This document shows, piece by piece, positions 814 to 44,230 of a stretch of DNA of 64,000 bases (positions within the stretch are counted from its first letter, which is position 1; every line of letters starts with the position of its first letter). Made by a program: the position numbers and the translations under genes. The stretch comes from Candidatus Doudnabacteria bacterium RIFCSPHIGHO2_12_FULL_48_16. GTDB taxonomy: Bacteria > Patescibacteriota > Doudnabacteria > UBA920 > O2-02-FULL-48-8. Location of the stretch: assembly GCA_001780035.1 (NCBI GenBank), contig MFEY01000005.1:40354-104353 (forward strand), given 5' to 3'. A model generated the notes under the pieces. The model was not told the origin of the DNA. It searched no databases and worked only from the letters and a program-made list of their open reading frames with translations.

Positions 814-1944
814 ATGCTATCAGCCATGAACACAGGTCCTAAAATCAAAAAAACCGTCATTGTCGGCATGTCGGGAGGAGTTGATTCCTCAGTTACCGCA
901 GTCTTGCTCAAACAGCAGGGCTTTGATGTGATTGGCGTGTTCATGAAAAATTGGAGCGAGGATTTTGGCGGTTACGGCTGCACCTGGGCCGAGGATGCGG
1001 AAGATGCCCGCAAGGTTGCCCAGGTTCTGAAAATTCCTTTTTATGTCTGGAATTTCGAGAAAGAATATCGGGCCAAGGTTGTGGACTATTTTTTGCGCGA
1101 ATACCGGGCCAACCGAACCCCCAATCCCGATGTGATGTGTAACAATGAGATTAAGTTCAAGTTTTTCTTGGATAAAGCCCTAAAGCTTGGCGCGGATTTC
1201 GTGGCGACCGGGCATTACGCGCGTATCACGAAACGCGTATCACGAAACGCGTATCACTTGCTCAAAGGCGTGGACCCGGCCAAGGACCAGAGTTATTTTT
1301 TGTATACCCTCAGGCAGAAACAGCTGGCAAAAATTTTATTTCCGATCGGGGGCTATAAAAAAAGCGAAATCCGCCGATTGGCCCGAAAATTCAAACTGCC
1401 AACTGCGGATAAAAAAGATTCCCAAGGCATTTGTTTTATCGGCAAAATCAATGTGGGTGAGTTTCTGCGCGCTCATATCCGGGCCAAGGCCGGCGATGTT
1501 GTGACCGCAACCGGCGAAAAAATCGGCCGCCACTCTGGATTGCCGTTTTACACGATCGGTCAGCGCGGCGGCATCGGAATCGGCGGGGGCGGCCCGTTTT
1601 ATGTCGTGGGCAAGGATCTCAAAAAGAATCAACTGGTCGTGACCAATAAGCCGGCGGATAAAAATTTATGGCGGCGGGAATTTTCGGTTTCAGACATCAG
1701 TTGGACCGGTCAGACCCCGAAATTGCCGCTGCGCGCCGGTGTCACGATCCGGTATCATCATCCGGAGCAGAAAGCCCTGATAGGGAGAATCCCGCCAAGA
1801 GGGCGGGCAGGCAAGAATCCCGCCAAAGGGGCGGCAAGAATCAAATTCGCAAAATCACAAAGGGCGATTACGCCTGGCCAAGCCGCGGTTTTTTATAAAA
1901 AAAATGAGTTACTCGGAGGGGGAATAATTGTTCATGTTTTTTAG
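814..1944 (+). CDS. mnmA: tRNA-specific 2-thiouridylase MnmA
   Basis: PP-loop motif GMSGGVDSSV and a C-terminal AITPGQAAVFY...LGGGII, both MnmA hallmarks. It carries internal tandem repeats, described in the findings. Confidence 0.9.
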   Translation: MLSAMNTGPKIKKTVIVGMSGGVDSSVTAVLLKQQGFDVIGVFMKNWSEDFGGYGCTWAEDAEDARKVAQVLKIPFYVWNFEKEYRAKVVDYFLREYRANRTPNPDVMCNNEIKFKFFLDKALKLGADFVATGHYARITKRVSRNAYHLLKGVDPAKDQSYFLYTLRQKQLAKILFPIGGYKKSEIRRLARKFKLPTADKKDSQGICFIGKINVGEFLRAHIRAKAGDVVTATGEKIGRHSGLPFYTIGQRGGIGIGGGGPFYVVGKDLKKNQLVVTNKPADKNLWRREFSVSDISWTGQTPKLPLRAGVTIRYHHPEQKALIGRIPPRGRAGKNPAKGAARIKFAKSQRAITPGQAAVFYKKNELLGGGIIVHVF

Positions 1945-2623: not shown

Positions 2624-4621
2624 TTACACCAAGAAACTGACTATTAACAAGGCAACAATGTTGATAATCTTGATCATGGGGTTGATGGCCGGGCCGGCAG
2701 TGTCTTTGTATGGGTCGCCGACCGTATCGCCGGTTATCGCGGCCTGATGGGCTAAGGATTTTTTGCCGCCGTAATTGCCTTCTTCAATGAATTTTTTGGC
2801 ATTGTCCCAAGCGGCGCCGCCTGAAGTCATGGAGATGGCGACAAACAAACCGGTAATGATGGAACCGACCAAAACTCCGCCCAGAGCCTTAACGCCCAAG
2901 AAGGGAATGAAGCCGACGGCAATCGGGACCATAACCGGCAAGAGGGCCGGAATGATCATTTCTTTGATCGCGGCTTTGGTCACAATGTCGACGGCTCGGC
3001 CGTAATCCGGTTTGGCCGTGCCTTCCATGATTCCGGGAATTTCGCGAAACTGGCGGCGGACTTCTTCGACCACGGCATGGCCGGCGCGGCCCACGGCCTG
3101 CATGGCCATGGAGCCGAATAGGTAGGGGAGCAAAGCGCCAATCATTAATCCGGCCAAGACTTTGATATCTGAAAGGTCAAATGCCATTGGGTGCCCTAGG
3201 CCCTTGAGTTCTTCCGTATAAGAGGCAAACAAGACGACGGCGGCCAATCCAGCCGAAGCGATGGCATAACCCTTGGTTACGGCTTTGGTCGTATTGCCGA
3301 CTGCGTCGAGTGCATCGGTGTGCTCACGAACTTCTTGCGGCAGCCCGGACATTTCGGCAATGCCGCCGGCGTTGTCCGTAATCGGGCCGAACGCATCAAT
3401 GGCCACGATTATGCCGGCCATCGAAAGCATGGAGACCACGGCAATGGCCGAGCCGTAAAGGCCCATGTAGTGATAAGAAACCATAATGCCGCCGATGATA
3501 ACCAGAACCGGCAGGGCGGTGGATTGCATGGAGACAGCCAGCCCGGTGATGATGTTGGTGCCATGGCCGGTGGTTGAAGCCTCGGCGATTGATTGCACGG
3601 GCCGGTATTGTTTGGAAGTGTAGTATTCCGTGATCACCACCATGGCAGCGGTCACCACCAAGCCCACGAAGGAAGCGTAAAGCAAGCCGGTGCCGAAGAA
3701 GGGAATAAACAAGCTTTTGGTTACCCAGTAAAATCCAACCGCGGCCAGCAGGCCGGAAACGATCAGACCTTTATAGAGAGCGGCCATGATTCCCTTATTG
3801 ACCAAGCGGACGAAGAAGGTGCCGATGATCGAAGCGAAGATCGAAATGGCGCCCAAAGCGAGTGGGTAAAGAACGAAGGTCGTGTTGCCCTGGAATAAAA
3901 TATTGCCCAGGAGCATGGCGGCAATGGTCGTGACGGCATAAGTTTCAAACAGATCCGCCGCCATGCCGGCGCAGTCACCAACATTATCACCAACGTTATC
4001 GGCGATAACCGCTGGGTTTCTTGGATCATCCTCGGGAATGCCGGCTTCAATTTTGCCGACCAAATCTGCGCCGACATCGGCGCCCTTGGTAAAAATGCCG
4101 CCGCCGAGGCGAGCAAATACCGAAATCAAGCTGCCGCCGAAACCGAGGCCAATCAGCGCCTTGATGTCACCGGTAAAATGGTAAAAGAGTGAGACGGACA
4201 GTAGGCCCAAACCGACCACAAACATGCCAGTTACTGCACCGCCCCGAAAGGCCATGTCGAAAGCGGCGGTCAGGCCCTGTTTCGCGCCTTCAGCAGTGCG
4301 AACATTGGCCCGCACAGCCACAAACATTCCGATAAAGCCGGCTAAGGCCGAGGCCACGGCCCCGACAATAAACCCTTCGGCCGTATGGGCGCCGAGGAAT
4401 TTCCAGATGACAATGGCCAAAATTACAGCCACCACGCCCACGGTTTTGTATTGGCGGGCCAGATAGGCGGTAGCGCCTTCTTGGATGGCTTTGGCGATTT
4501 CCTGCATCTTTTCGTTGCCAGCCCCTTTCTGCATCACGAGCCAGGTTAGGATAAACCCATAAACAATCGCGGCCAATCCCGCGATTACGGCAAACCCGAT
4601 GATATTGGATTCGGATAACAT
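2624..4621 (-). CDS. hppA: membrane-bound H+/Na+-translocating pyrophosphatase
   Basis: 665 aa and polytopic. Motifs [26 protein letters not shown] and [13 protein letters not shown] are diagnostic of V-PPase. Confidence 0.95.
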
Positions 4622-5067: not shown

Positions 5068-5172
5068 ACCCCGTTAGAAGTAAAAAAATAGTAACTGCTC
5101 TCTCGGAGGTGAATAATTTTTTATATCTTAATTCGATTATATTTTAATGTCTTCAGAAACTTCTAACGGGGT
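5068..5172. repeat. inverted-repeat (MITE-like) element, copy A
   Basis: Perfect 14-bp TIRs: accccgttagaagt at 5068-5081 and acttctaacggggt at 5159-5172, around an AT-rich 77-bp core. The right TIR overlaps the 5' end of the GT2 gene. Confidence 0.7.
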
Positions 5173-5872
5173 GAAATACCAAAAAGTCAGCATTGTCATT
5201 CCCGTTTACAACGAACGAGCAACGATTGAGCAGGTCTTGGCTCAGGTTCGGGCGGCGTCGACTCTTGGTTTGGAAAAAGAAATCATTCTGGTGGATGATT
5301 GTTCCACCGACGGCACGAGAGAATTTTTGGCAACTTTAATCGATGAAAATTTTAAAGTTTTTTTGCAGGATAAGAACACGGGCAAGGGCGGGGCGCTCCA
5401 TTATGGATTTGAACAAGCCAGCGGGGATATCGTGATCATCCAGGATGCGGATTTGGAGTATGATCCGGCCGATATCCAGAAAATTTTAGAGCCGTTTATG
5501 AAAAATGGCGCCGAGGTCGTCTACGGATCCCGCTACCTTCAGCCGAGCGTCGGATTAAAATTTTGGCACAGTTTTTTTAATAAACTCTTTACTCAAGTTA
5601 GTAACCTTTTGATCGGCCAGAAAATTACCGACATTATGACTTGTTACAAAGCTTTTAGCCGTAAGGCGATTGGCAGTTTCGTCCAAAAGCTGCAATCGCA
5701 GCGATTTGGGTTTGAGCCGGAAGTGACGGCGCGGGTCAGCCAGGCCGGTTTTAGAATTGTCGAAGTTCCGGTCTCATACCGCCCGCGGTCGCACACCGAA
5801 GGTAAGCATATGAATTTAAAAGGCCAGCTAGAATCGCTGGCCGCCTTGATCAAATACAGTTTATTTGGTTAG
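5147..5872 (+). CDS. family 2 glycosyltransferase (Dpm1/polyprenol-phosphate mannose synthase-like)
   Basis: VSIVIPVYNE...DDCSTDGT...IQDADLEYDP is the GT2 DxD signature. The native start may be the GTG at 5171 (MKYQKVSIVIP), directly after the TIR. The listed ATG at 5147 lies inside the element. Confidence 0.85.
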   Translation: MSSETSNGVKYQKVSIVIPVYNERATIEQVLAQVRAASTLGLEKEIILVDDCSTDGTREFLATLIDENFKVFLQDKNTGKGGALHYGFEQASGDIVIIQDADLEYDPADIQKILEPFMKNGAEVVYGSRYLQPSVGLKFWHSFFNKLFTQVSNLLIGQKITDIMTCYKAFSRKAIGSFVQKLQSQRFGFEPEVTARVSQAGFRIVEVPVSYRPRSHTEGKHMNLKGQLESLAALIKYSLFG

Positions 5873-10889: not shown

Positions 10890-12131
10890 ATGGAGAGGGG
10901 AGTTCTAAGCAAAAGAAACTCAAAGCAAATGGAACCGTTAGCATCAAAGATTCGACCCAAAAACCTGGAAGAATTTATCGGGCAAGCGCATTTGGTCGGC
11001 CTTGATAGGCCGTTAAGAATCGCCATCGAGAACAAGCATTTGTTTTCCTTCATTTTTTGGGGACCGCCGGGCGTGGGCAAGACGACCCTGGCCAAAATTT
11101 ATGCCAAAGCTCTGAATGCCGACCTGTTTGAATTGTCCGCAGTTTCATCTGGTAAAGATGATGTCCGGCAGATTGTGAACCCCGTTAGAAGTAAGACGCC
11201 TGGGACGTCTGCCGATATGTTTACATACCGGACTTCTAACGGGGTGAATGCCAACACGGCCAAACCGAAAGTCTTGTTTCTGGACGAAATCCATCGGTTC
11301 AACAAAGCCCAGCAGGATTACTTGCTGCCGTTTGTCGAAAAAGGAGAAATCACTCTGATCGGCGCAACTACGGAAAATCCCAGCTTCGAGATTATCCCGG
11401 CGTTGCTGTCTCGCTGCCGGGTGTTTGTCCTGCATGAATTTTCGGCCGAAGAAATGTCAAAAATCATTGACCGCACCGGAGTCAAGCTCGATAAAAAATC
11501 CAAAGAATGGCTGGTCAATATGGCCAACGGCGATGCGCGGCAGGCAATCACTATGTTGGAGAATACGGTTAATTTTTACGGCAAAGCTACAGTTGAGAAC
11601 CTGAAGAACACGCTGCAGAGCAAATTCCTGCGGTTCGATAAGAAGGGCGAAGAGCATCACAACACGATTAGCGCGTTTATCAAATCCATGCGGGCCAGCC
11701 AGCCGGATGCAGCGCTGTATTATTTGGCCCGGATGATTGAATCAGGCGAGGATCCGAAATTTATTGCCCGGCGCATGGTCGTGTTCGCATCCGAAGACAT
11801 TGGATTGGCGCAACCCACGGCTTTGGTCGTCGCCAATGATGTGTTCCGCGCCGTTGAAACTATAGGCTTGCCGGAGGCGGCGGTCAATCTGGCGCACGGC
11901 GTGGCGTATCTGGCTTTGGCCCCTAAGAATCGCGATTCTTACAATGCTTATTATGAAGCGCTCGATGACGTCAAAGAGCTGGGCAATCTGCCGATCCCGA
12001 TGATGATCCGCAATGCCCCGACCAAGCTTATGAAGGATTTGGGCTACCACCAAGGTTATGAATTGTATCCAAAGGAAGATCTTTTGCCGGAGCAGCTGAA
12101 AGGCAAAAAATATCTGAAGCGAAAAAAATGA
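10890..12131 (+). CDS. rarA: replication-associated recombination protein A (AAA+ ATPase)
   Basis: FWGPPGVGKTTLA, LFLDEIHRFNKAQQD and GATTENPSFE. It carries a 23-aa in-frame insertion, which is repeat copy B. Confidence 0.9.
   Translation: MERGVLSKRNSKQMEPLASKIRPKNLEEFIGQAHLVGLDRPLRIAIENKHLFSFIFWGPPGVGKTTLAKIYAKALNADLFELSAVSSGKDDVRQIVNPVRSKTPGTSADMFTYRTSNGVNANTAKPKVLFLDEIHRFNKAQQDYLLPFVEKGEITLIGATTENPSFEIIPALLSRCRVFVLHEFSAEEMSKIIDRTGVKLDKKSKEWLVNMANGDARQAITMLENTVNFYGKATVENLKNTLQSKFLRFDKKGEEHHNTISAFIKSMRASQPDAALYYLARMIESGEDPKFIARRMVVFASEDIGLAQPTALVVANDVFRAVETIGLPEAAVNLAHGVAYLALAPKNRDSYNAYYEALDDVKELGNLPIPMMIRNAPTKLMKDLGYHQGYELYPKEDLLPEQLKGKKYLKRKK
11179..11245. repeat. inverted-repeat (MITE-like) element, copy B, in-frame inside rarA
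   Basis: Perfect 14-bp TIRs: accccgttagaagt at 11179-11192 and acttctaacggggt at 11232-11245. The flanking dinucleotide GA is duplicated, so 67+2 = 69 bp adds 23 codons. Confidence 0.7.
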
Positions 12132-14251: not shown

Positions 14252-14347
14252 TCCCGTTTAGAAATTTTTCTAAAAAGGGGATTGATTAAGATTAACCGTT
14301 GTCGTAATTAGCGATAATTGTATGCTAATCACTTATTTCTAACGGGA
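14252..14347. repeat. inverted-repeat element, copy C
   Basis: tcccgtttagaaat at 14252-14265 pairs with atttctaacggga at 14335-14347. The element sits in the divergent intergenic region between the helicase and the GT-C gene. Confidence 0.6.
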
Positions 14348-32873: not shown

Positions 32874-33230
32874 TTATCTTAAAGCTTTTCTGAAACCCGC
32901 AGCCTGGGCGGCGGACTCGGTTGCAAAGCAGGTCAGTGCGTTAAGCTTATCATATCCGGATTGTCCGGGCACATGGTAAATTCGCGAGCTCGGCGTGCCT
33001 TTGATTTTGCATTCCGCGCTGTTGGTTTCTGATTGTAAACCTGACACGGTTGGAGTATAATTACTCTCAGCAGATACGTTTTGCTCCAGCCTGATTTCCG
33101 GGCCTTTTTCTTGAACGGTTGCCAGCTGACCGAGAGCAAAGCCAATCGAGGCAACCAGGAGATAGCCGATCGCGAGGACAATTGCCTGCTGACGGGTTTT
33201 GATAAACAGTTTTATTTTTTCCATATGCAA
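32874..33230 (-). CDS. membrane-anchored protein with Ada-type metal-binding-like domain
   Basis: An N-terminal TM helix and C-terminal C..IYHVPG..Y....CF.TE.AA.AAGFR, which resembles the Ada N-terminal Zn-binding motif. Confidence 0.4.
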   Translation of the reverse strand: MHMEKIKLFIKTRQQAIVLAIGYLLVASIGFALGQLATVQEKGPEIRLEQNVSAESNYTPTVSGLQSETNSAECKIKGTPSSRIYHVPGQSGYDKLNALTCFATESAAQAAGFRKALR

Positions 33231-33261
33231 TATGCGTTTATCCTAGGGAGGGTTTATACTT

Positions 33262-34583
33262 TGTCCTTGGCCGAAATTCTCAAGGTCTTGCAGGCTTTGG
33301 GCGTGGGGCACAAAATTCTGGCTTGCTCCCCCGAGGTCGTGGTCATCGAAACCGACAAAGCCTTAAAACCCGAAGAACTGCAGCCGCGCCTGGGCGGTGT
33401 TATCAAAATTATACGACTTTTTGACACTTTTCAAAAGAAGGGCAAGGAATTCCCTTCCCAGGTTCTGGGCAGTTACTTCACCTTTAAGCGCATCAAGGAA
33501 TATTTTCACGAATATTCCGGCAAGAAGCAGTTCGGCGTTTCAATTTACAGTTTGGATCCGACAGTTCGATTTCGCGAAGAAGCCCAGCGCGTGGCTTTCC
33601 TGATCAAAAAAGTTTTACAGGACGAAACCCAAAGCGTTCGGGCCGTCCTGCCGCAGTTTCCCTCCCAGGCGCTGACCTCGGTGCAGGTCAACGAAAATCA
33701 TATTTTGGAAAAAGGCGCTGAGGTAGTAGTCATTAGTGGCAACCAAAGATTATTTATCGGCAAGACCATCACTGTGCAAAATTATGAGGACTACGGGCGC
33801 CGGGATTATCAGCGGCCAGCTCGTGATGAAAAAGTCGGTATGATTCCACCCAAGGTCGCGCAGACCATGATTAATTTCGCCCAGCCGCTCAAGCCTCTCG
33901 ATTATATCCTTGATCCGTTCTGCGGCTGCGGCACGGTGTTGCAGGAAGCTATCTATATGGGCTATCGCGCTATCGGCGCGGATCTGGAGCAGAAAATGGT
34001 GGAAAATAGCGAGAAGAACCTTGAGTGGTTCCGAAACCGCTACCACGTTTCGCCGGGCCGCTACAAGTTGTTTAAATCAAATGCGGCGGAAATTTCGATT
34101 ATCCTCCCCAATTATCAGGTTGCGGCCGTGGTCACCGAAGGCACCCTGGGCCCGATCTATAGCAAGTTACCAAAAAAGCCGGAGATGACGGAAAATTTTA
34201 AAACCTTAAGCAAGCTCTATGATCAGGTTTTCAAGGAATTTAAAAAATTCCTGACCGAGGGGGCGCGGGTTGTGATCTGCCTGCCGGCCTATAAAGTCAG
34301 CGCTACAGACTACGCCTTTCTGCCCGATCTTGACTTTGCGACCCAAAACGGGTATACTGTCTTGGATCCCCTGCCCGATTTTTTGGTCAAAAAATACCGC
34401 TTCCTCAAAGTCACGGAACGCAAATCCTGCGTCTATGACCGGCGAGATCAGATCGTGGCGCGCGAGATTGTTATATTTCAATATGGAACTAACGATTCGA
34501 ATCAAGTATTAACCGAAGATCGTAATAGCAACCCCGCGGGTGAAGACGAGAATTCGGAACTAACCGAAAACAATGGCGCATAA
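33262..34583 (+). CDS. class I SAM-dependent methyltransferase (UPF0020/putative RNA methylase-like)
   Basis: [13 protein letters not shown] is SAM-binding motif I. The probable start is TTG 33262 with a GGGAGGG SD 10 nt upstream. An in-frame ATG at 33225 is the alternative. Confidence 0.55.
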
Positions 34584-34863
34584 GAAAGCCGGCGGCTCCA
34601 CAGCTTTAGGCCGCGACTCACAATCCAAGCGATTAGGCATCAAGAAATTTGGCGGCCAGACCGCCGAGATTGGCAATATCATAGTCCGCCAGCGCGGGAC
34701 CAAGTGGCACCCGGGCAAGAATGTCCGCATCGGCGGCGATGATTCCATCTATGCCGTGGCAGTCGGAATCGTTAAATTCACTTCCAAGAAAGTCCGCGGG
34801 TTTGATGGTAATCTGCATTTACGTAGGTTCGTCCACGTCCTGCCCGCAGAAGCCAAGAAATAA
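34573..34863 (+). CDS. rpmA: 50S ribosomal protein L27
   Basis: [28 protein letters not shown]...[10 protein letters not shown]. Confidence 0.9.
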
Positions 34864-34880
34864 TTATATAGTTCGAAGAC

Positions 34881-34903
34881 AACCCCGCCTCTGGCGGGGT
34901 TTT
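34881..34903 (+). terminator. intrinsic terminator after rpmA
   Basis: aaccccgcc-tctg-gcggggtt followed by ttg. Confidence 0.6.
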
Positions 34904-34965
34904 GAGTTGCTTAAATTTTATCCCGGTGCTTTAATAACCTTAGGTATTAATTTAGAGCAAGTTAT

Positions 34966-36108
34966 ATGAAAAAATTTAAAGTATTCGGTCTTGCAGCGGT
35001 CGTGTTGGCATTGGCCGCTTCTCCGGTTCTGGCCGCGGAGTTTATTGCGCCGGAAAGCAAAACAGATGCCAATATCTCGACTCTGCAGCAGGACGTGCAT
35101 AAAAATCTTTATATTGCGGGCGCCGCGGTGACGATCAACGGCAAAATCCAGGGCGACCTGGCTGCGGCTGGCGGCGTCGTGACTGTGAACGGTGATGTCG
35201 AAAAAGGCCTATTGCTCGCCGGCGGCAATCTGAATCTCAACGCTGCTGTGGGTGAAAATGCCCGCATCGCCGGCGGCAATGTTTCCATCAATGCTCCGGT
35301 CGGCGGCGATTTGCTGGTCGGCGGCGGGAACATTACAATTGCCCAAAAAGCCAAAGTGGGTGGCGATCTTGTTATCGGCGGGGGCAATGTCTTGCTGGAC
35401 GCGGATGTGGCCGGCAATGTGAAAATCGGCGGGGGCAATGTTACAATCAATGGCAAAGTCAGCGGCAACGTCGAGGTTATGGCCAATCAAAATCTAACGT
35501 TCGGCCCGGCCAGTCAGGTTCTGGGGAAAGTTAGCTTCAAGGGTCCGCAGGAAGCGGTAGTCAAACCAGGCGCGAAGGTGGGCGTGATTACTTACACTCA
35601 TATCAACAAGCGAGTGGCCCACCGGAGCGGCATAATCGGATTGTTGATCATTGGCAGCTTGTTTAAACTGATTATGCTGCTGGTTGCGGCCGTAGTTTTG
35701 GCCTGGCTCTTGCCCAGTAAGATTTCAGCCGTTGTCGCCGAAGCCAAAGCCAAGCCCTGGCACAGCCTAGGATTCGGGGTCTTGGTGGTAATTCTCTCCC
35801 CCATCTTGGGAGTGATTCTGATGGCAACGGTTCTGGGGATTTATCTGGGAATGATTGTGTTTATGATCTTTGGCCTGCTTATGATTATTTCGGCCATTCT
35901 CTCTCTGTTCTATGTCGGTAACCAGGTTTGGAGCTGGTATCACCGCGATGCAATCGCCAATCGCTGGCGCGATCTAGGGCTTGGCGCGCTGATCACGCTG
36001 ATTCTCGGGTTTATCCCGATCGTGGGCTGGGTAATCCTCCTGGTCATCTGGCTCATTACGCTGGGGGCGCTTAAAAGATACACTTATCAGGAAGCCTTCG
36101 GTAAATAA
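34966..36108 (+). CDS. secreted/membrane protein with beta-helical GGN repeats (bactofilin/DUF4097-like) and C-terminal TM domain
   Basis: Signal peptide, a repeated xGGNVxIN/VGGDLxV pattern, and four C-terminal TM helices. Confidence 0.5.
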   Translation: MKKFKVFGLAAVVLALAASPVLAAEFIAPESKTDANISTLQQDVHKNLYIAGAAVTINGKIQGDLAAAGGVVTVNGDVEKGLLLAGGNLNLNAAVGENARIAGGNVSINAPVGGDLLVGGGNITIAQKAKVGGDLVIGGGNVLLDADVAGNVKIGGGNVTINGKVSGNVEVMANQNLTFGPASQVLGKVSFKGPQEAVVKPGAKVGVITYTHINKRVAHRSGIIGLLIIGSLFKLIMLLVAAVVLAWLLPSKISAVVAEAKAKPWHSLGFGVLVVILSPILGVILMATVLGIYLGMIVFMIFGLLMIISAILSLFYVGNQVWSWYHRDAIANRWRDLGLGALITLILGFIPIVGWVILLVIWLITLGALKRYTYQEAFGK

Positions 36109-39162: not shown

Positions 39163-39258
39163 TCCCGTTAGAAAATTGATAATAATATGATATTTTTTTC
39201 GATGCTTATATTATAAATTTAATGCTGTTAATTTAACTTTGAGCTATTTCTAACGGGA
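39163..39258. repeat. inverted-repeat element, copy E, exactly filling ftsE-ftsX gap
   Basis: tcccgttagaaaat at 39163-39176 pairs with atttctaacggga at 39246-39258. One end abuts the ftsE stop and the other abuts the ftsX ATG. Confidence 0.6.
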
Positions 39259-41840: not shown

Positions 41841-42513
41841 GATCTTGAATGATATTTTTTAATTTTTTGAGGTGATGAATCAAGTGATCGGGTTTTGTCG
41901 CCTTGAGCCGCCGGGTGCTGGAATTGCCACCCGACAGAGCTACGGTGACGTATCCGAATTTTTTTCCGATCTCAATTTCTTCGGTAGTGTCGCCGACGAC
42001 CAGGACCTCGTTTGGCTTCAGTCTATTTTTTATCACGTATTCCTCGAGCTGGCTTTCTTTGCCTCGCTTGTGCATCAACGAAGTGTCCTCCACGGTGGTA
42101 AAGCCCAAAATATCTTTAAAGGAATCAATTTCCAGGCGCTTTAGTTGCTTTCGGATATGAGATTCCATATGGTTGCTAAAAATAACCTTGTTGATTTTTT
42201 GAGTTTCCAGCCAATCCAAAATTTCGCGGGATCCGGCCCTGGTTCGACATAAACCTTCCCGGGGTTCGTAATAAGTGAAATATGTTTTACGGATTGTTAG
42301 AACATTTCGCTCGAAGTCTTTTAGTTTCATCCCCATCGCCAGCCAATACAATTTAAATGGAACAACCATCTTGTGCTGCAGCTCTTTTAGATTTGTCGGC
42401 TTTAAACGAAACTTGACCAAGGTATGCGACATGGCTCTTACCACCAGATTAGTATCGGCAAAGATAGTGCCGTTCCAATCAAAAGCCACTAGCTTAATTT
42501 TATCCTTTGTCAT
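41815..42513 (-). CDS. HAD-family hydrolase/phosphatase
   Basis: VAFDWNGTIFADT is HAD motif I, and VVGDT..E is motif IV. Confidence 0.7.
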   Translation of the reverse strand: MTKDKIKLVAFDWNGTIFADTNLVVRAMSHTLVKFRLKPTNLKELQHKMVVPFKLYWLAMGMKLKDFERNVLTIRKTYFTYYEPREGLCRTRAGSREILDWLETQKINKVIFSNHMESHIRKQLKRLEIDSFKDILGFTTVEDTSLMHKRGKESQLEEYVIKNRLKPNEVLVVGDTTEEIEIGKKFGYVTVALSGGNSSTRRLKATKPDHLIHHLKKLKNIIQDHGRTAAKN

Positions 42514-44230
42514 ATTTTTTATCCAGTTCCGCCTCCTTGACCCGCTGTTTGGCTTCGCTGTCAGCGCGGGACCAGTAATAGTTTTCGTAATCGACGAATT
42601 TCATCATGTCCGCTCGCCATTGGCTGCGCTTGGCAATCAGTTTATGCATTTCCTGGGCCGCCAGCCGGTATTGCGGATGCCCTTGCGGCGTCGAGCGCAG
42701 CTCCAGCATATGCATAGCTTCCCGGTCGTTAAAGGCAATCGACCAGCGGATGTAATGGCCATGCAGCGTTGCATATTGGGCGGCCAGTGGCGCCGTCTTG
42801 AGCATGGCATCGAACAGCTTATCGGATTTTTCAATGCAGATTTTGATTTTGTCTTCCACTCCGGCCTGGATAATTTCCTGCGGCATCTGAAAGCCGATTT
42901 TCGTGGTAAACATCTGGCGCTGCTGCGTGTTCATGCGATGCCGCTGCAAATCCTTATAAGTGCCAAAGTTAATTACTGTATCAAAGCTATGCGGATAACC
43001 TGTTTCAAGGCCCCGGCCGGGCCGCTGGCGGCGATTTTCGCGCTCTCCGACGTAGACCCGGACAATTTCCTTGCGGTCATTCTCGCTCATGTTTTCAATT
43101 TTGCGGCGTATTTTTCGCAGGGGCATATTGGAATAAGGAAAAACCATGGCGGCGAGCTGGTCAACGTCCGCAGTTTCTTGTAACAGGGCGGTGATTGCCG
43201 CGGCATTGACCGCCTTGTTCTTGAGCTTTATGGCCAGGTATTCTTCTCCGCGATCCTGCAGGTCATAATGCGGCAGAGTTGGCGGCACTTCAGGTGTGTC
43301 TAACCAAAAATGCTTTTTAGCCAGACTCGCTATTTCTTTTTCGGTTTCATGCCAGTATTTGTCTGCTTTGGCCCGGCGCACGTATTGCGGAATAGTTTGC
43401 GCCAAGGCTTTGGCGGTCTGGTTCGCAATGCTGTTGAATTCCGGCAGCTTATGCGTCAGCAAATTCGAGATCAAGGTTTGATAGAAGCGGCCATTGCCAA
43501 ACATGCCGACATTCGTCAGAGTGCCGATCGGCAGCAGGCAGCGTAGGGTATCACAAGCTTTGGACCGCAAATCAAAGTTGTAGGTGGTTTTAAAAGCCTT
43601 CTGTTGCTTCTCATCAGTTATGTCGGCAAATTTTTCTTTGGCGCCGTCACCGTTGATATCGTATTCGGCTTCGCCGATCGGCTTGAGTTTTTCGTAGTAA
43701 GCCTTGAGCGGCTCGACCAGGTCGGCATATGTCTGGAAGATAAAATCCATCGTTTTCGCATATTGCGGTCCGAACGGTGCGCCTAAAACATCCTCGCCGC
43801 GATAATACAGCCAGTTGCCTTTGTCGTCCTTCTGGTCATAAAACACGTAGCGCGTGGATTGCTCGATTGGTGAACCGCCAATGCGGTGATCCTCGATTTC
43901 CTTGGCCGCGATCATCGTCACCTTTTCAAACGAAACATGACCCCCCTCCAATTCCCCCACGCTGTCGTCGCCATAAGCGACCAATACCCGGGCAATCAAT
44001 TCATCCGCATGTTTCGGGTCAATCTGACCTTCTTTGATAAATTCTTTGAGCAAAGTTTCGCGAAATCCGCCCTTGGCGCGCGAGTAGCGGGCATAAGCGG
44101 CGCCGACGATGCCGCTTAAGTTTCTGATGGCAAAGACATTGTCCTCGGTCGAGGTGACATAGGGTTCCAGGAGTTTTTTTTCGTCGTCAGTGAACATATA
44201 AATGCGTATTAGAACCTTAACTTTTTCCAA
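42500..44230 (-). CDS. thyX: FAD-dependent thymidylate synthase ThyX, long (~570 aa) form
   Basis: RHRMNTQQRQ is the ThyX RHR motif, with ELRSTPQGHPQYR alongside. The extra N-terminal half contains a degenerate YARYSRA. The start may be the M at 44197. Confidence 0.6.
   Translation of the reverse strand: MEKVKVLIRIYMFTDDEKKLLEPYVTSTEDNVFAIRNLSGIVGAAYARYSRAKGGFRETLLKEFIKEGQIDPKHADELIARVLVAYGDDSVGELEGGHVSFEKVTMIAAKEIEDHRIGGSPIEQSTRYVFYDQKDDKGNWLYYRGEDVLGAPFGPQYAKTMDFIFQTYADLVEPLKAYYEKLKPIGEAEYDINGDGAKEKFADITDEKQQKAFKTTYNFDLRSKACDTLRCLLPIGTLTNVGMFGNGRFYQTLISNLLTHKLPEFNSIANQTAKALAQTIPQYVRRAKADKYWHETEKEIASLAKKHFWLDTPEVPPTLPHYDLQDRGEEYLAIKLKNKAVNAAAITALLQETADVDQLAAMVFPYSNMPLRKIRRKIENMSENDRKEIVRVYVGERENRRQRPGRGLETGYPHSFDTVINFGTYKDLQRHRMNTQQRQMFTTKIGFQMPQEIIQAGVEDKIKICIEKSDKLFDAMLKTAPLAAQYATLHGHYIRWSIAFNDREAMHMLELRSTPQGHPQYRLAAQEMHKLIAKRSQWRADMMKFVDYENYYWSRADSEAKQRVKEAELDKKYDKG

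Follow-up and report, generated by a model that had tools for sequence, protein, structure and literature searches.

The 64,000-nucleotide stretch of Candidatus Doudnabacteria bacterium RIFCSPHIGHO2_12_FULL_48_16 analysed here (contig MFEY01000005.1, positions 40,354 to 104,353; hereafter the window) carries a rarA/mgsA-like gene for an AAA+ ATPase, within which lies a short palindromic element that we call E2 (Table 1). Counted from its first ATG, the open reading frame (ORF) encodes 413 residues, or 400 from the publicly annotated start at 10929, and it matches the structure of E. coli MgsA (PDB 3PVS) with E = 1.8e-87. The protein is 100% identical to a record from Candidatus Doudnabacteria bacterium RIFCSPLOWO2_02_FULL_49_13, its cluster is represented on 19 contigs, and a separate JGI contig (L001) has the same DNA as the window at the site of the insertion.

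The sequence ACCCCGTTAGAAGT at 11179-11192 is followed by its exact reverse complement at 11232-11245, just as an earlier note on this DNA had reported in describing perfect 14-bp terminal inverted repeats (TIRs); with up to two mismatches, this 14-mer occurs six times in the window against an expectation of 0.23. From the family-wide data presented below, the fourteenth A/T pair is the T..A of the target and lies outside the element proper, the TIRs of E2 being perfect over 13/13 bp (14/14 if the T..A of the target is included). The earlier note had also proposed a duplicated GA dinucleotide flanking a 67-bp element. GA is indeed duplicated, but as part of a 4-bp TGAA (the duplicated stretch being at most GTGAA), and the element is one of 65 bp. 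The empty site is preserved in the DNA of the closest orthologue (L002), which reads GTGAAT only once, against GTGAAC-CCCG…CGGG-GTGAAT in the window. At the protein level, the corresponding 23 residues are missing from all 23 aligned RarA orthologues, which read …DDVR(Q/K)I|VNANT…; the closest of these, with 90% identity outside the gap, also lacks them. The orthologue alignment that the earlier note had recommended has thus recovered both the 23-residue indel and the empty site, and in none of the orthologues do the same residues occur without the TIR signature. The residues being absent from 23/23 orthologues and the empty site being present, this is an insertion and not an ancestral loop, and we are all but certain that what was inserted is mobile DNA.

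Within RarA the element comes after Walker A (GPPGVGKT) and before Walker B (VLFLDEIH), and in the rarA frame it reads NPVRSKTPGTSADMFTYRTSNGV without a stop (context …IV-NPVRSKTPGTSADMFTYRTSNGV-NANT…), for a net gain of 69 bp or 23 codons; in both respects the earlier note was accurate. It has no long open frames other than those in which the host gene reads through it, and no transposase ORF occurs in the 65 bp. In the alignment, Walker A, Walker B, sensor 1 and the arginine finger are all unaltered. E. coli MgsA has nothing that corresponds to the insert, which on the 3PVS alignment comes after the helix succeeding the Walker A strand and before the Walker B strand; judging from P-loop fold topology, the loop that enters the Walker B strand would be on the face opposite the nucleotide site. 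Modelling with AlphaFold2, another check that had been suggested, gives the insert as low-confidence coil (pLDDT <50) between helix 76-83 and strand 114-119, which is consistent with a surface loop without demonstrating one. Since its 69 bp keep the host frame open, the insertion is in all likelihood carried into the mRNA and the protein, where it would form a 23-residue loop that leaves the catalytic motifs intact, and we think it likely, from the sequence, that these residues are present in a still-functional RarA.

Two other statements in the earlier note did not survive. It had held that only one of the three frames through the element is open, whereas two of the three are open on each strand, and it takes the TGA within the flanking TGAA to close the second plus-strand frame; moreover, a single open 23-codon frame has a chance probability of ~0.32, so the open frame of E2 is no evidence by itself. 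It had also called rarA essential, whereas rarA/mgsA knock-outs are viable in both E. coli and B. subtilis. As for the loop itself, neighbouring positions differ in length among the RarA orthologues, and in other lineages RarA has palindromic inserts of its own in this inter-Walker loop (L215 ~750-850, P0060, and L216 ~828-870, P0085), examples being TCCTCCTTTCTTAAAGGAGG…CTCCCTTTAGAAAAGGGAGA and ATTCCCGCCTTCGCGGGAAT. On these sequences the inter-Walker loop of RarA appears to be a recurrent permissive site.

A scan of metagenomes for the architecture of E2 (between the two ends, the first of them 12 nt long, a constant hairpin AAGACGCC-NNN-GGCGTCT and then a second hairpin CCG…CGG, separated by a G) gave 81 loci with 59 distinct copies, which we consider the E2 subfamily. 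The lengths of 47 of the 59 are multiples of three, with a mode of 69. Of the 59 copies, 22 are read through inside ORFs, every one of them (22/22) being a multiple of three, and 19 of the 22 are read on the strand that has AAGACGCC first, so that, like the rarA copy, they encode PVRSKTPxASAD…RTSNG. The second hairpin varies in both sequence and length from copy to copy, with its pairing retained: in 18 copies of equal length 97.9% of cells are paired, and six of the eight pairs of this hairpin are altered on both sides, a result that neither shuffles nor slid registers come close to reproducing. E2 is predicted to fold as a stem bearing a pair of hairpins, with z-scores against shuffles of -5.6 on one strand and -9.9 on the other. 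G.T wobbles are distributed symmetrically between the strands (7 vs 8), which implies that the constraint, or a mutational correction, acts on the palindrome as DNA instead of on a single RNA strand; a strand-specific RNA structure was rejected on this ground.

The subfamily is part of a much wider family that is recognised by its ends, YCCCGTTAGAA. We searched one genome per GTDB species with the pattern CCCGTTAGAA-(31-91 nt)-TTCTAACGGG, for which we estimate a chance expectation of ~30 in 6e11 bases, and obtained at least 120 loci with the shared ends YCCCGTTAGAAR. Among the matches listed, the hosts are many Candidate Phyla Radiation (CPR) lineages, Planctomycetota (Pirellulales and Phycisphaerae), Omnitrophota, Desulfobacterota and a few others. 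The miniature copies are ~51-120 bp long and their interiors are unrelated between subfamilies, the ends alone being held in common. The bases just outside CCCG..CGGG are a complementary Y/R pair in 123 of the 131 copies listed, a feature not demanded by the search pattern, and 75 of the same 131 are flanked by a perfect 4-bp direct repeat (mostly TAAA, TGAA, TCAA, TGAG or TCCA); TTAA is the duplication in none of them. The target consensus is R-TNNA-Y, with R to the left and Y to the right of the repeat, and the duplication must be one of 4 bp because cases such as TGAG/TGAG do not fit a 2-bp duplication next to a longer inverted repeat. Miniature copies are also present on 11 predicted viral contigs of IMG/VR (L123-L133), which are possible vehicles of spread across phyla, while a blastn search of cultured plasmids and phages returned chance matches only and no copy of the family. 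In the literature searched there was no description of these ends, of the family or of similar MITEs (miniature transposable elements with inverted repeats) in CPR bacteria or Planctomycetes, and queries with the end sequence in its DNA or RNA form retrieved unrelated primers only. Similarly, Rfam searches (the window at the gathering threshold, the element at the E-value threshold) gave only two tRNAs and chance miRNA-like matches. The family is thus widespread across phyla and, apparently, undescribed.

Many of these copies lie inside genes, and there a filter operates. Each copy was deleted in silico and the restored long ORF recorded, a copy being classed as mid-ORF if it lay at least 30 codons inside an ORF of at least 150 codons. 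Among the matches listed, 19 mid-ORF copies out of 21 are stop-free and have lengths divisible by three, against a background of 35% in all other copies (binomial P ~2e-7); the two whose lengths are not multiples of three are at an ftsE/ftsX junction (copy E4 of the window) and on the viral contig L123. Copies are found in both orientations within ORFs and, whichever the orientation, two of the three frames through the family ends are open while the third has a TAG or TAA. It is because two frames are stop-free that the ends can be read as either PVR…SNG or PLE…LLTG: the read-through copies are stop-free, most having the form xPVR(S/N)…SNG(V/I)x and a minority PLE…LLTG. Intragenic copies are kept only if they are multiples of three and free of stops. 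The earlier note had argued for selection for in-frame carriage from the frame of the rarA copy alone; that argument fails, but the family statistics (19/21 here and 22/22 in the E2 subfamily) support the selection all the same.

The copies have a second common location. About a quarter of those listed (33/138) lie within three codons of a start codon, typically as ATGA(A/G)Y-element-ATGA(A/G)… with the ATG duplicated (for example L007 3113-3176, L022, L046, L070, L076, L099 and L114). Such copies can have any length and are mostly of an AT-rich ~100-bp type. Only seven copies are at stop codons, though TGAA and TAAA occur there also, and the excess at start codons could reflect either a target preference or a tolerance afforded by translational coupling. 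Three other copies lie in the window (Table 1). E1 supplies both the called ATG (5147) and the residues MSSETSNG, the first eight of a GT2-like glycosyltransferase (ORF 5147-5872), whose probable original start is the GTG at 5171 (MKYQKVSIVIPVYNE). E4 interrupts the TATGA stop/start overlap of ftsE-like and ftsX-like genes, which are now 97 nt apart owing to the element, and its duplication restores the stop and the start codon.

We found no conventional transposase for this family. Neither in the window nor in ~1.5 Mb of flanking sequence around more than 200 copies did end pairs enclose a transposase, and no element longer than ~300 bp with the family ends was present there. In all the loci fetched, end pairs 130-6000 bp apart and unpaired ends resolved into neighbouring small copies only; L019 and L182, which were considered as autonomous partners, have ordinary genes inside and were ruled out. 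All-against-all clustering of the ORFs produced no transposase-like cluster, and Pfam searches of 30 large ORFs in the window no transposase.

What the family ends do enclose, in elements of 275-297 bp, is a single ORF of 86-91 residues with a GIY-YIG domain (PF01541, E ~4e-15). Such elements are present in L094, L146, L173, L187, L209 (two, in tandem), L217, L227, L228, L230, L233 and L235, and there is one with diverged ends in L143. The ORF starts with an ATG that lies 16-38 nt in from one end and takes its last residues (…R/S-L-L/S-T-G) from the other end; in most of the elements its stop is the TGA of the flanking TGAN. Four of them have a perfect 4-bp duplication, that of the first copy in L209 being TGAG. 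They are situated at gene junctions (for example between trpE and trpG, or before an RNase E/G gene), co-oriented with the downstream gene, and in some the nuclease stop overlaps the ATG of the host gene. The protein family is large, with 3827 matches at E ≤ 1e-10, nearly all of 86 residues and from phyla shared with the miniature copies. Of the 120 closest homologues, 91 have LTG as their exact C-terminus, a sequence that comes from the inverted repeat, and the left end, read in frame, gives the MNPVR or MRPVR with which some homologues start. Tyr3, Tyr5, Tyr16, Arg26, His30 and Glu62, which include the catalytic Tyr, Tyr, Arg, His and Glu, do not vary among 40 sequences. Of the solved structures the closest is UPF0213 BH0048 (1ZG2, E 3e-8), which puts the protein in the bacterial Slx1-like branch as a minimal form with no accessory domain. 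We could confirm no relative in IMG/VR, and the literature searched contained no description of GIY-YIG genes bounded by inverted repeats. The part of a 2006 survey of the superfamily that treats the Slx1-like branch (PMC1564403) describes minimal stand-alone domains, predicted to be repair proteins and vertically inherited, and mentions no flanking repeats there, whereas the genes described here are bounded by repeats. We consider it highly probable that the family of the rarA element and the GIY-YIG elements make up one superfamily.

Some peculiarities of arrangement were noticed among both kinds of copies. A left flank C(T/C)TG(Y) recurs without a matching duplication on the right in L228, L235, L173, L033, L059, L104, L105 and L121, in miniature as well as GIY-YIG copies, and CAAG/CTTG is a true duplication in L160 and L173. 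Nested, abutting or tandem copies occur in L062 (4621-4788), L187 (~4100-4140), L034 (7674-7895) and L209 (2173-2792); in L062 an E2-type copy lies within a larger AGAG-type element that is itself on a start codon. Elsewhere in the window, a ThyX-like ORF of 576 residues at 42500-44230 on the minus strand has two separate Thy1 matches and is far longer than ThyX proteins usually are (roughly 220-300 residues). A DNA-methylase-like ORF (UPF0020/N6_N4_Mtase), followed by a 380-residue ORF with no Pfam match, occupies 33081-36108, and the two may be a restriction-modification pair.

Table 1. Coordinates of the rarA gene, of the element copies in the window and of GIY-YIG elements on other contigs.
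Feature	Location	Strand	Remarks
rarA/mgsA-like AAA+ ATPase ORF	window 10890-12131	+	insertion host; Pfam RuvB_N, AAA, AAA_assoc_2, MgsA_C
E2, 65-bp non-autonomous element in rarA	window 11180-11244	.	13-bp perfect TIRs CCCCGTTAGAAGT/ACTTCTAACGGGG; read-through NPVRSKTPGTSADMFTYRTSNG(V)
Target-site duplication TGAA, left copy	window 11176-11179	.	single GTGAAT in orthologue
Target-site duplication TGAA, right copy	window 11245-11248	.	single GTGAAT in orthologue
Internal hairpin 1 of E2 (AGACGCC-TGG-GACGTCT)	window 11194-11210	.	constant in E2 subfamily
Internal hairpin 2 of E2 (CCGATATG-TTTA-CATACCGG)	window 11212-11231	.	one A.C mismatch; sequence varies, pairing kept
E1, 103-bp copy	window 5069-5171	.	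ends identical; start of GT2-like gene; no intact duplication (TATA vs TGAA)
E3, 96-bp copy (TCCCGTTTAGAAAT...ATTTCTAACGGGA)	window 14252-14347	.	TTTA duplications at 14248-51 and 14348-51; between divergent genes
E4, 96-bp copy	window 39163-39258	.	5-bp duplication TCATA at 39158-62 and 39259-63
GIY-YIG element	L094 6920-7198		
GIY-YIG element	L146 714-991		
GIY-YIG element	L173 1720-1994		
GIY-YIG elements, tandem	L209 2173-2467 and 2498-2792		
GIY-YIG element	L217 1466-1758		TGAT duplication
GIY-YIG element	L230 ~1184-1458		TGAA duplication
GIY-YIG element	L143 ~1655-1935		TGAA duplication

With respect to known systems, the anatomy of E2 is that of a MITE: it is shorter than 500 bp, without a transposase ORF, with TIRs, a target duplication and an empty site, and it has dispersed copies: four in the window and others at no fewer than 120 genome loci, on 11 viral contigs and, for the E2 subfamily, at 81 loci in metagenomes. 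Other bacterial MITEs (Correia/CREE, ERIC, Coxiella QMITE and those of Anabaena) are likewise short, folded and multi-copy with TIRs and duplications, and occasionally have in-frame copies; however, they are tied to DDE insertion sequences or to one lineage, whereas here no DDE partner was found, the ends are all that the subfamilies share and the sole coding partner is a GIY-YIG gene. The behaviour of E2, on the other hand, is the phenomenon known from the Rickettsia palindromic elements (RPEs), small palindromic repeats that lie in frame and stop-free within protein genes, with occasional in-frame insertions also known for ERIC, QMITE and Anabaena MITEs (PMC10969869). The earlier note had drawn this parallel, and it is apt for the behaviour, though the families are probably different. 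Both are palindromic, in frame and stop-free in genes, and add a characteristic peptide to unrelated proteins, but RPEs are ~100-150 bp long (vs ~51-120 bp here) and restricted to one genus, whereas the present family spans several phyla and has defined 13-bp inverted ends, 4-bp duplications, GIY-YIG-coding full-length members and frequent start-codon targets. With no sequence relationship seen, and with its hosts, the lack of an Rfam match and ends that differ from every repeat retrieved from the literature, the family appears separate from the RPEs, and we regard it as analogous to them and not as a member. The GIY-YIG elements, for their part, resemble the seg genes of phage T4 in lying between host genes and being co-oriented with the downstream gene, and the UPF0213/YhbQ Slx1-like proteins in consisting of a minimal GIY-YIG domain. 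Homing endonucleases, unlike them, have DNA-binding domains and one cognate site, without inverted ends or target duplications.

Several other identities were considered and rejected. Integron attC sites have R'' (RYYYAAC) at the 5' side and R' (GTTRRRY) at the 3' side and occur in cassette arrays; in the present family the core order is reversed (GTTAGAA 5', TTCTAAC 3'), and the copies stand alone, with target duplications, within genes or at start codons. REP and REPIN sequences, which are mobilised by RAYT transposases of the HUH type, are also non-autonomous hairpin repeats whose structure is kept while their sequence drifts. REPs are extragenic, however, and make no target duplication. 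The abstract of PMC3733652 gives them GTAG or CGTC tags; the ends here are YCCCGTTAGAA, duplications of 4 bp are made and many copies are intragenic. An origin from IS982 was discarded since the inverted-repeat consensus of that family, 5'-AC(N)6T(N)5TT-3' (PMC7335449), does not fit, ACCCCGTTAGAAGT having A and not T at position 9.

Taken overall, the best explanation of E2, and very probably the right one, is an in-frame mobile miniature element of this family. It would be a piece of miniature non-autonomous mobile DNA, with 13-bp TIRs around two small hairpins, that integrated at a TGAA of rarA through a 4-bp staggered cut, duplicating the TGAA, and the copy would persist through purifying selection. 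That the 23 residues are instead a loop of ancestral or lineage-specific origin, or an artefact of the assembly, is extremely improbable: the one thing in its favour is the length variation of neighbouring loops among orthologues, and against it are the 23 orthologues that lack the residues, the perfect ends, the duplication, the empty site, the homologous copies at unrelated sites in hundreds of genomes and the same sequence in a separate assembly. It is somewhat easier to imagine, though still unlikely, that the insertion inactivated a non-essential RarA and that the open frame is coincidental, or the event so recent that the gene is an incipient pseudogene. After all, rarA is dispensable in model bacteria, the insert is within the AAA+ core and the frame would be open by chance in about a third of cases. 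Yet the ORF is full-length with its AAA+ motifs intact and 90% identity to the closest orthologue outside the insert, one hairpin already has a mismatch while the frame has been preserved, the family-wide in-frame filter implies that the host genes are under selection, and RarA of other lineages accommodates other insertions in this loop. A further alternative, that the hairpin works as RNA (a cis-regulatory or processing element, or a mini-intron, the 23 residues then never appearing in RarA), we hold to be very unlikely. The strong fold and the covariation in the hairpin would suit it, as would the many copies abutting start codons, where the stem would occlude the AUG; but an RNA that is excised needs neither a multiple of three nor an open frame, yet both are the rule in mid-ORF copies (19/21) and in the subfamily (22/22), and the symmetric wobble, the two orientations within ORFs and the lack of an Rfam match also speak against RNA, just as the target duplications and the empty site speak for an insertion of DNA.

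If E2 is a miniature mobile element, there remains the matter of what moves it. The best candidate would be the ~280-bp units with their 86-residue nuclease of Slx1/UPF0213 type, which could mobilise full-length and miniature copies alike, perhaps by acting on the extruded stem with its hairpins. By analogy this is a reasonable mechanism for an Slx1-type enzyme, published abstracts on eukaryotic Slx1 and ANKLE1 describing cleavage of branched and cruciform DNA. We therefore put forward, as a tentative proposal, that these units (13-bp repeat, leader of 16-38 nt, 86-residue ORF and TGAN stop) are autonomous transposons whose sole enzyme is a structure-specific GIY-YIG nuclease working on an extruded hairpin or cruciform, and that the rarA insert and thousands of coding-compatible miniatures in CPR bacteria, Planctomycetota and Omnitrophota are their offspring; that the nuclease is in fact the mobilising enzyme is possible, but doubtful. 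It is likewise conceivable, without being probable, that an unsampled DDE transposase (e.g., one related to IS1380/piggyBac) moves the family and that the GIY-YIG ORF is a cargo, homing or addiction gene. Duplications of 4 bp (once 5 bp), a palindromic R-TNNA-Y target and short perfect TIRs are classic DDE signatures, and the interiors of the miniatures are unrelated to the GIY-YIG elements. The piggyBac end CCCTAGAAAGATA resembles CCCGTTAGAAAT, a likeness that could be due to chance. The IS1380 family makes 4-5-bp repeats and is the prokaryotic outgroup of piggyBac, which has TTAA targets and CCC ends (PMC3281130, PMC10813416); the present family resembles them in its T..A duplications of 4 (sometimes 5) bp and its CCC-starting ends. 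However, the piggyBac target TTAA is never a duplication here, the IS982 consensus is a misfit, the elements are 10-30 times smaller than those of piggyBac/IS1380, and the searches of the window, of ~1.5 Mb and of more than 200 copies yielded no DDD/DDE transposase, no transposase-like cluster and no element above ~300 bp with these ends. In addition, the GIY-YIG ORF is fused to the end of its element, with its C-terminus in the repeat (91/120 homologues) and its stop in the duplication, which would be unusual for cargo.

A number of points weigh against our interpretation of the rarA copy and of its relation to the GIY-YIG elements. Translation of the insert and activity of RarA are things we infer from the sequence, and the AlphaFold2 model is weak (mean pLDDT 62, from a shallow alignment), though consistent with a surface loop. 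The JGI metagenomes searched contain no empty-site allele of the host species that would point directly to recent mobility at rarA, and the perfect yet variable hairpins could be produced by template-switch correction of quasi-palindromes instead of by selection. There is no GIY-YIG element within the 64-kb window, the interiors of the miniatures have no sequence likeness to the GIY-YIG elements beyond the ends, intact duplications flank only 4-5 of the 12 GIY-YIG elements and, to our knowledge, no GIY-YIG enzyme transposes with 4-bp duplications.

The colonisation of genes by in-frame palindromes, which has mostly been deemed a peculiarity of Rickettsia, is common in CPR bacteria and in several uncultivated phyla, and, as a general source of change in small genomes, palindromic mobile DNA gives proteins new loops and N-terminal extensions and alters their start regions. 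For annotation this means that called starts, N-termini and lineage-specific inserts can be element-derived, the glycosyltransferase of the window being an example. The identical 12-13-bp ends and the subfamilies shared by distant phyla mark horizontal exchange among groundwater bacteria. Finally, ends that are fused to a minimal GIY-YIG gene constitute a testable candidate for a transposition chemistry outside the known insertion-sequence families, and a compact one if true; should the GIY-YIG units indeed be autonomous, they would be insertion sequences of a mechanistically new class, smaller than any autonomous one so far known.

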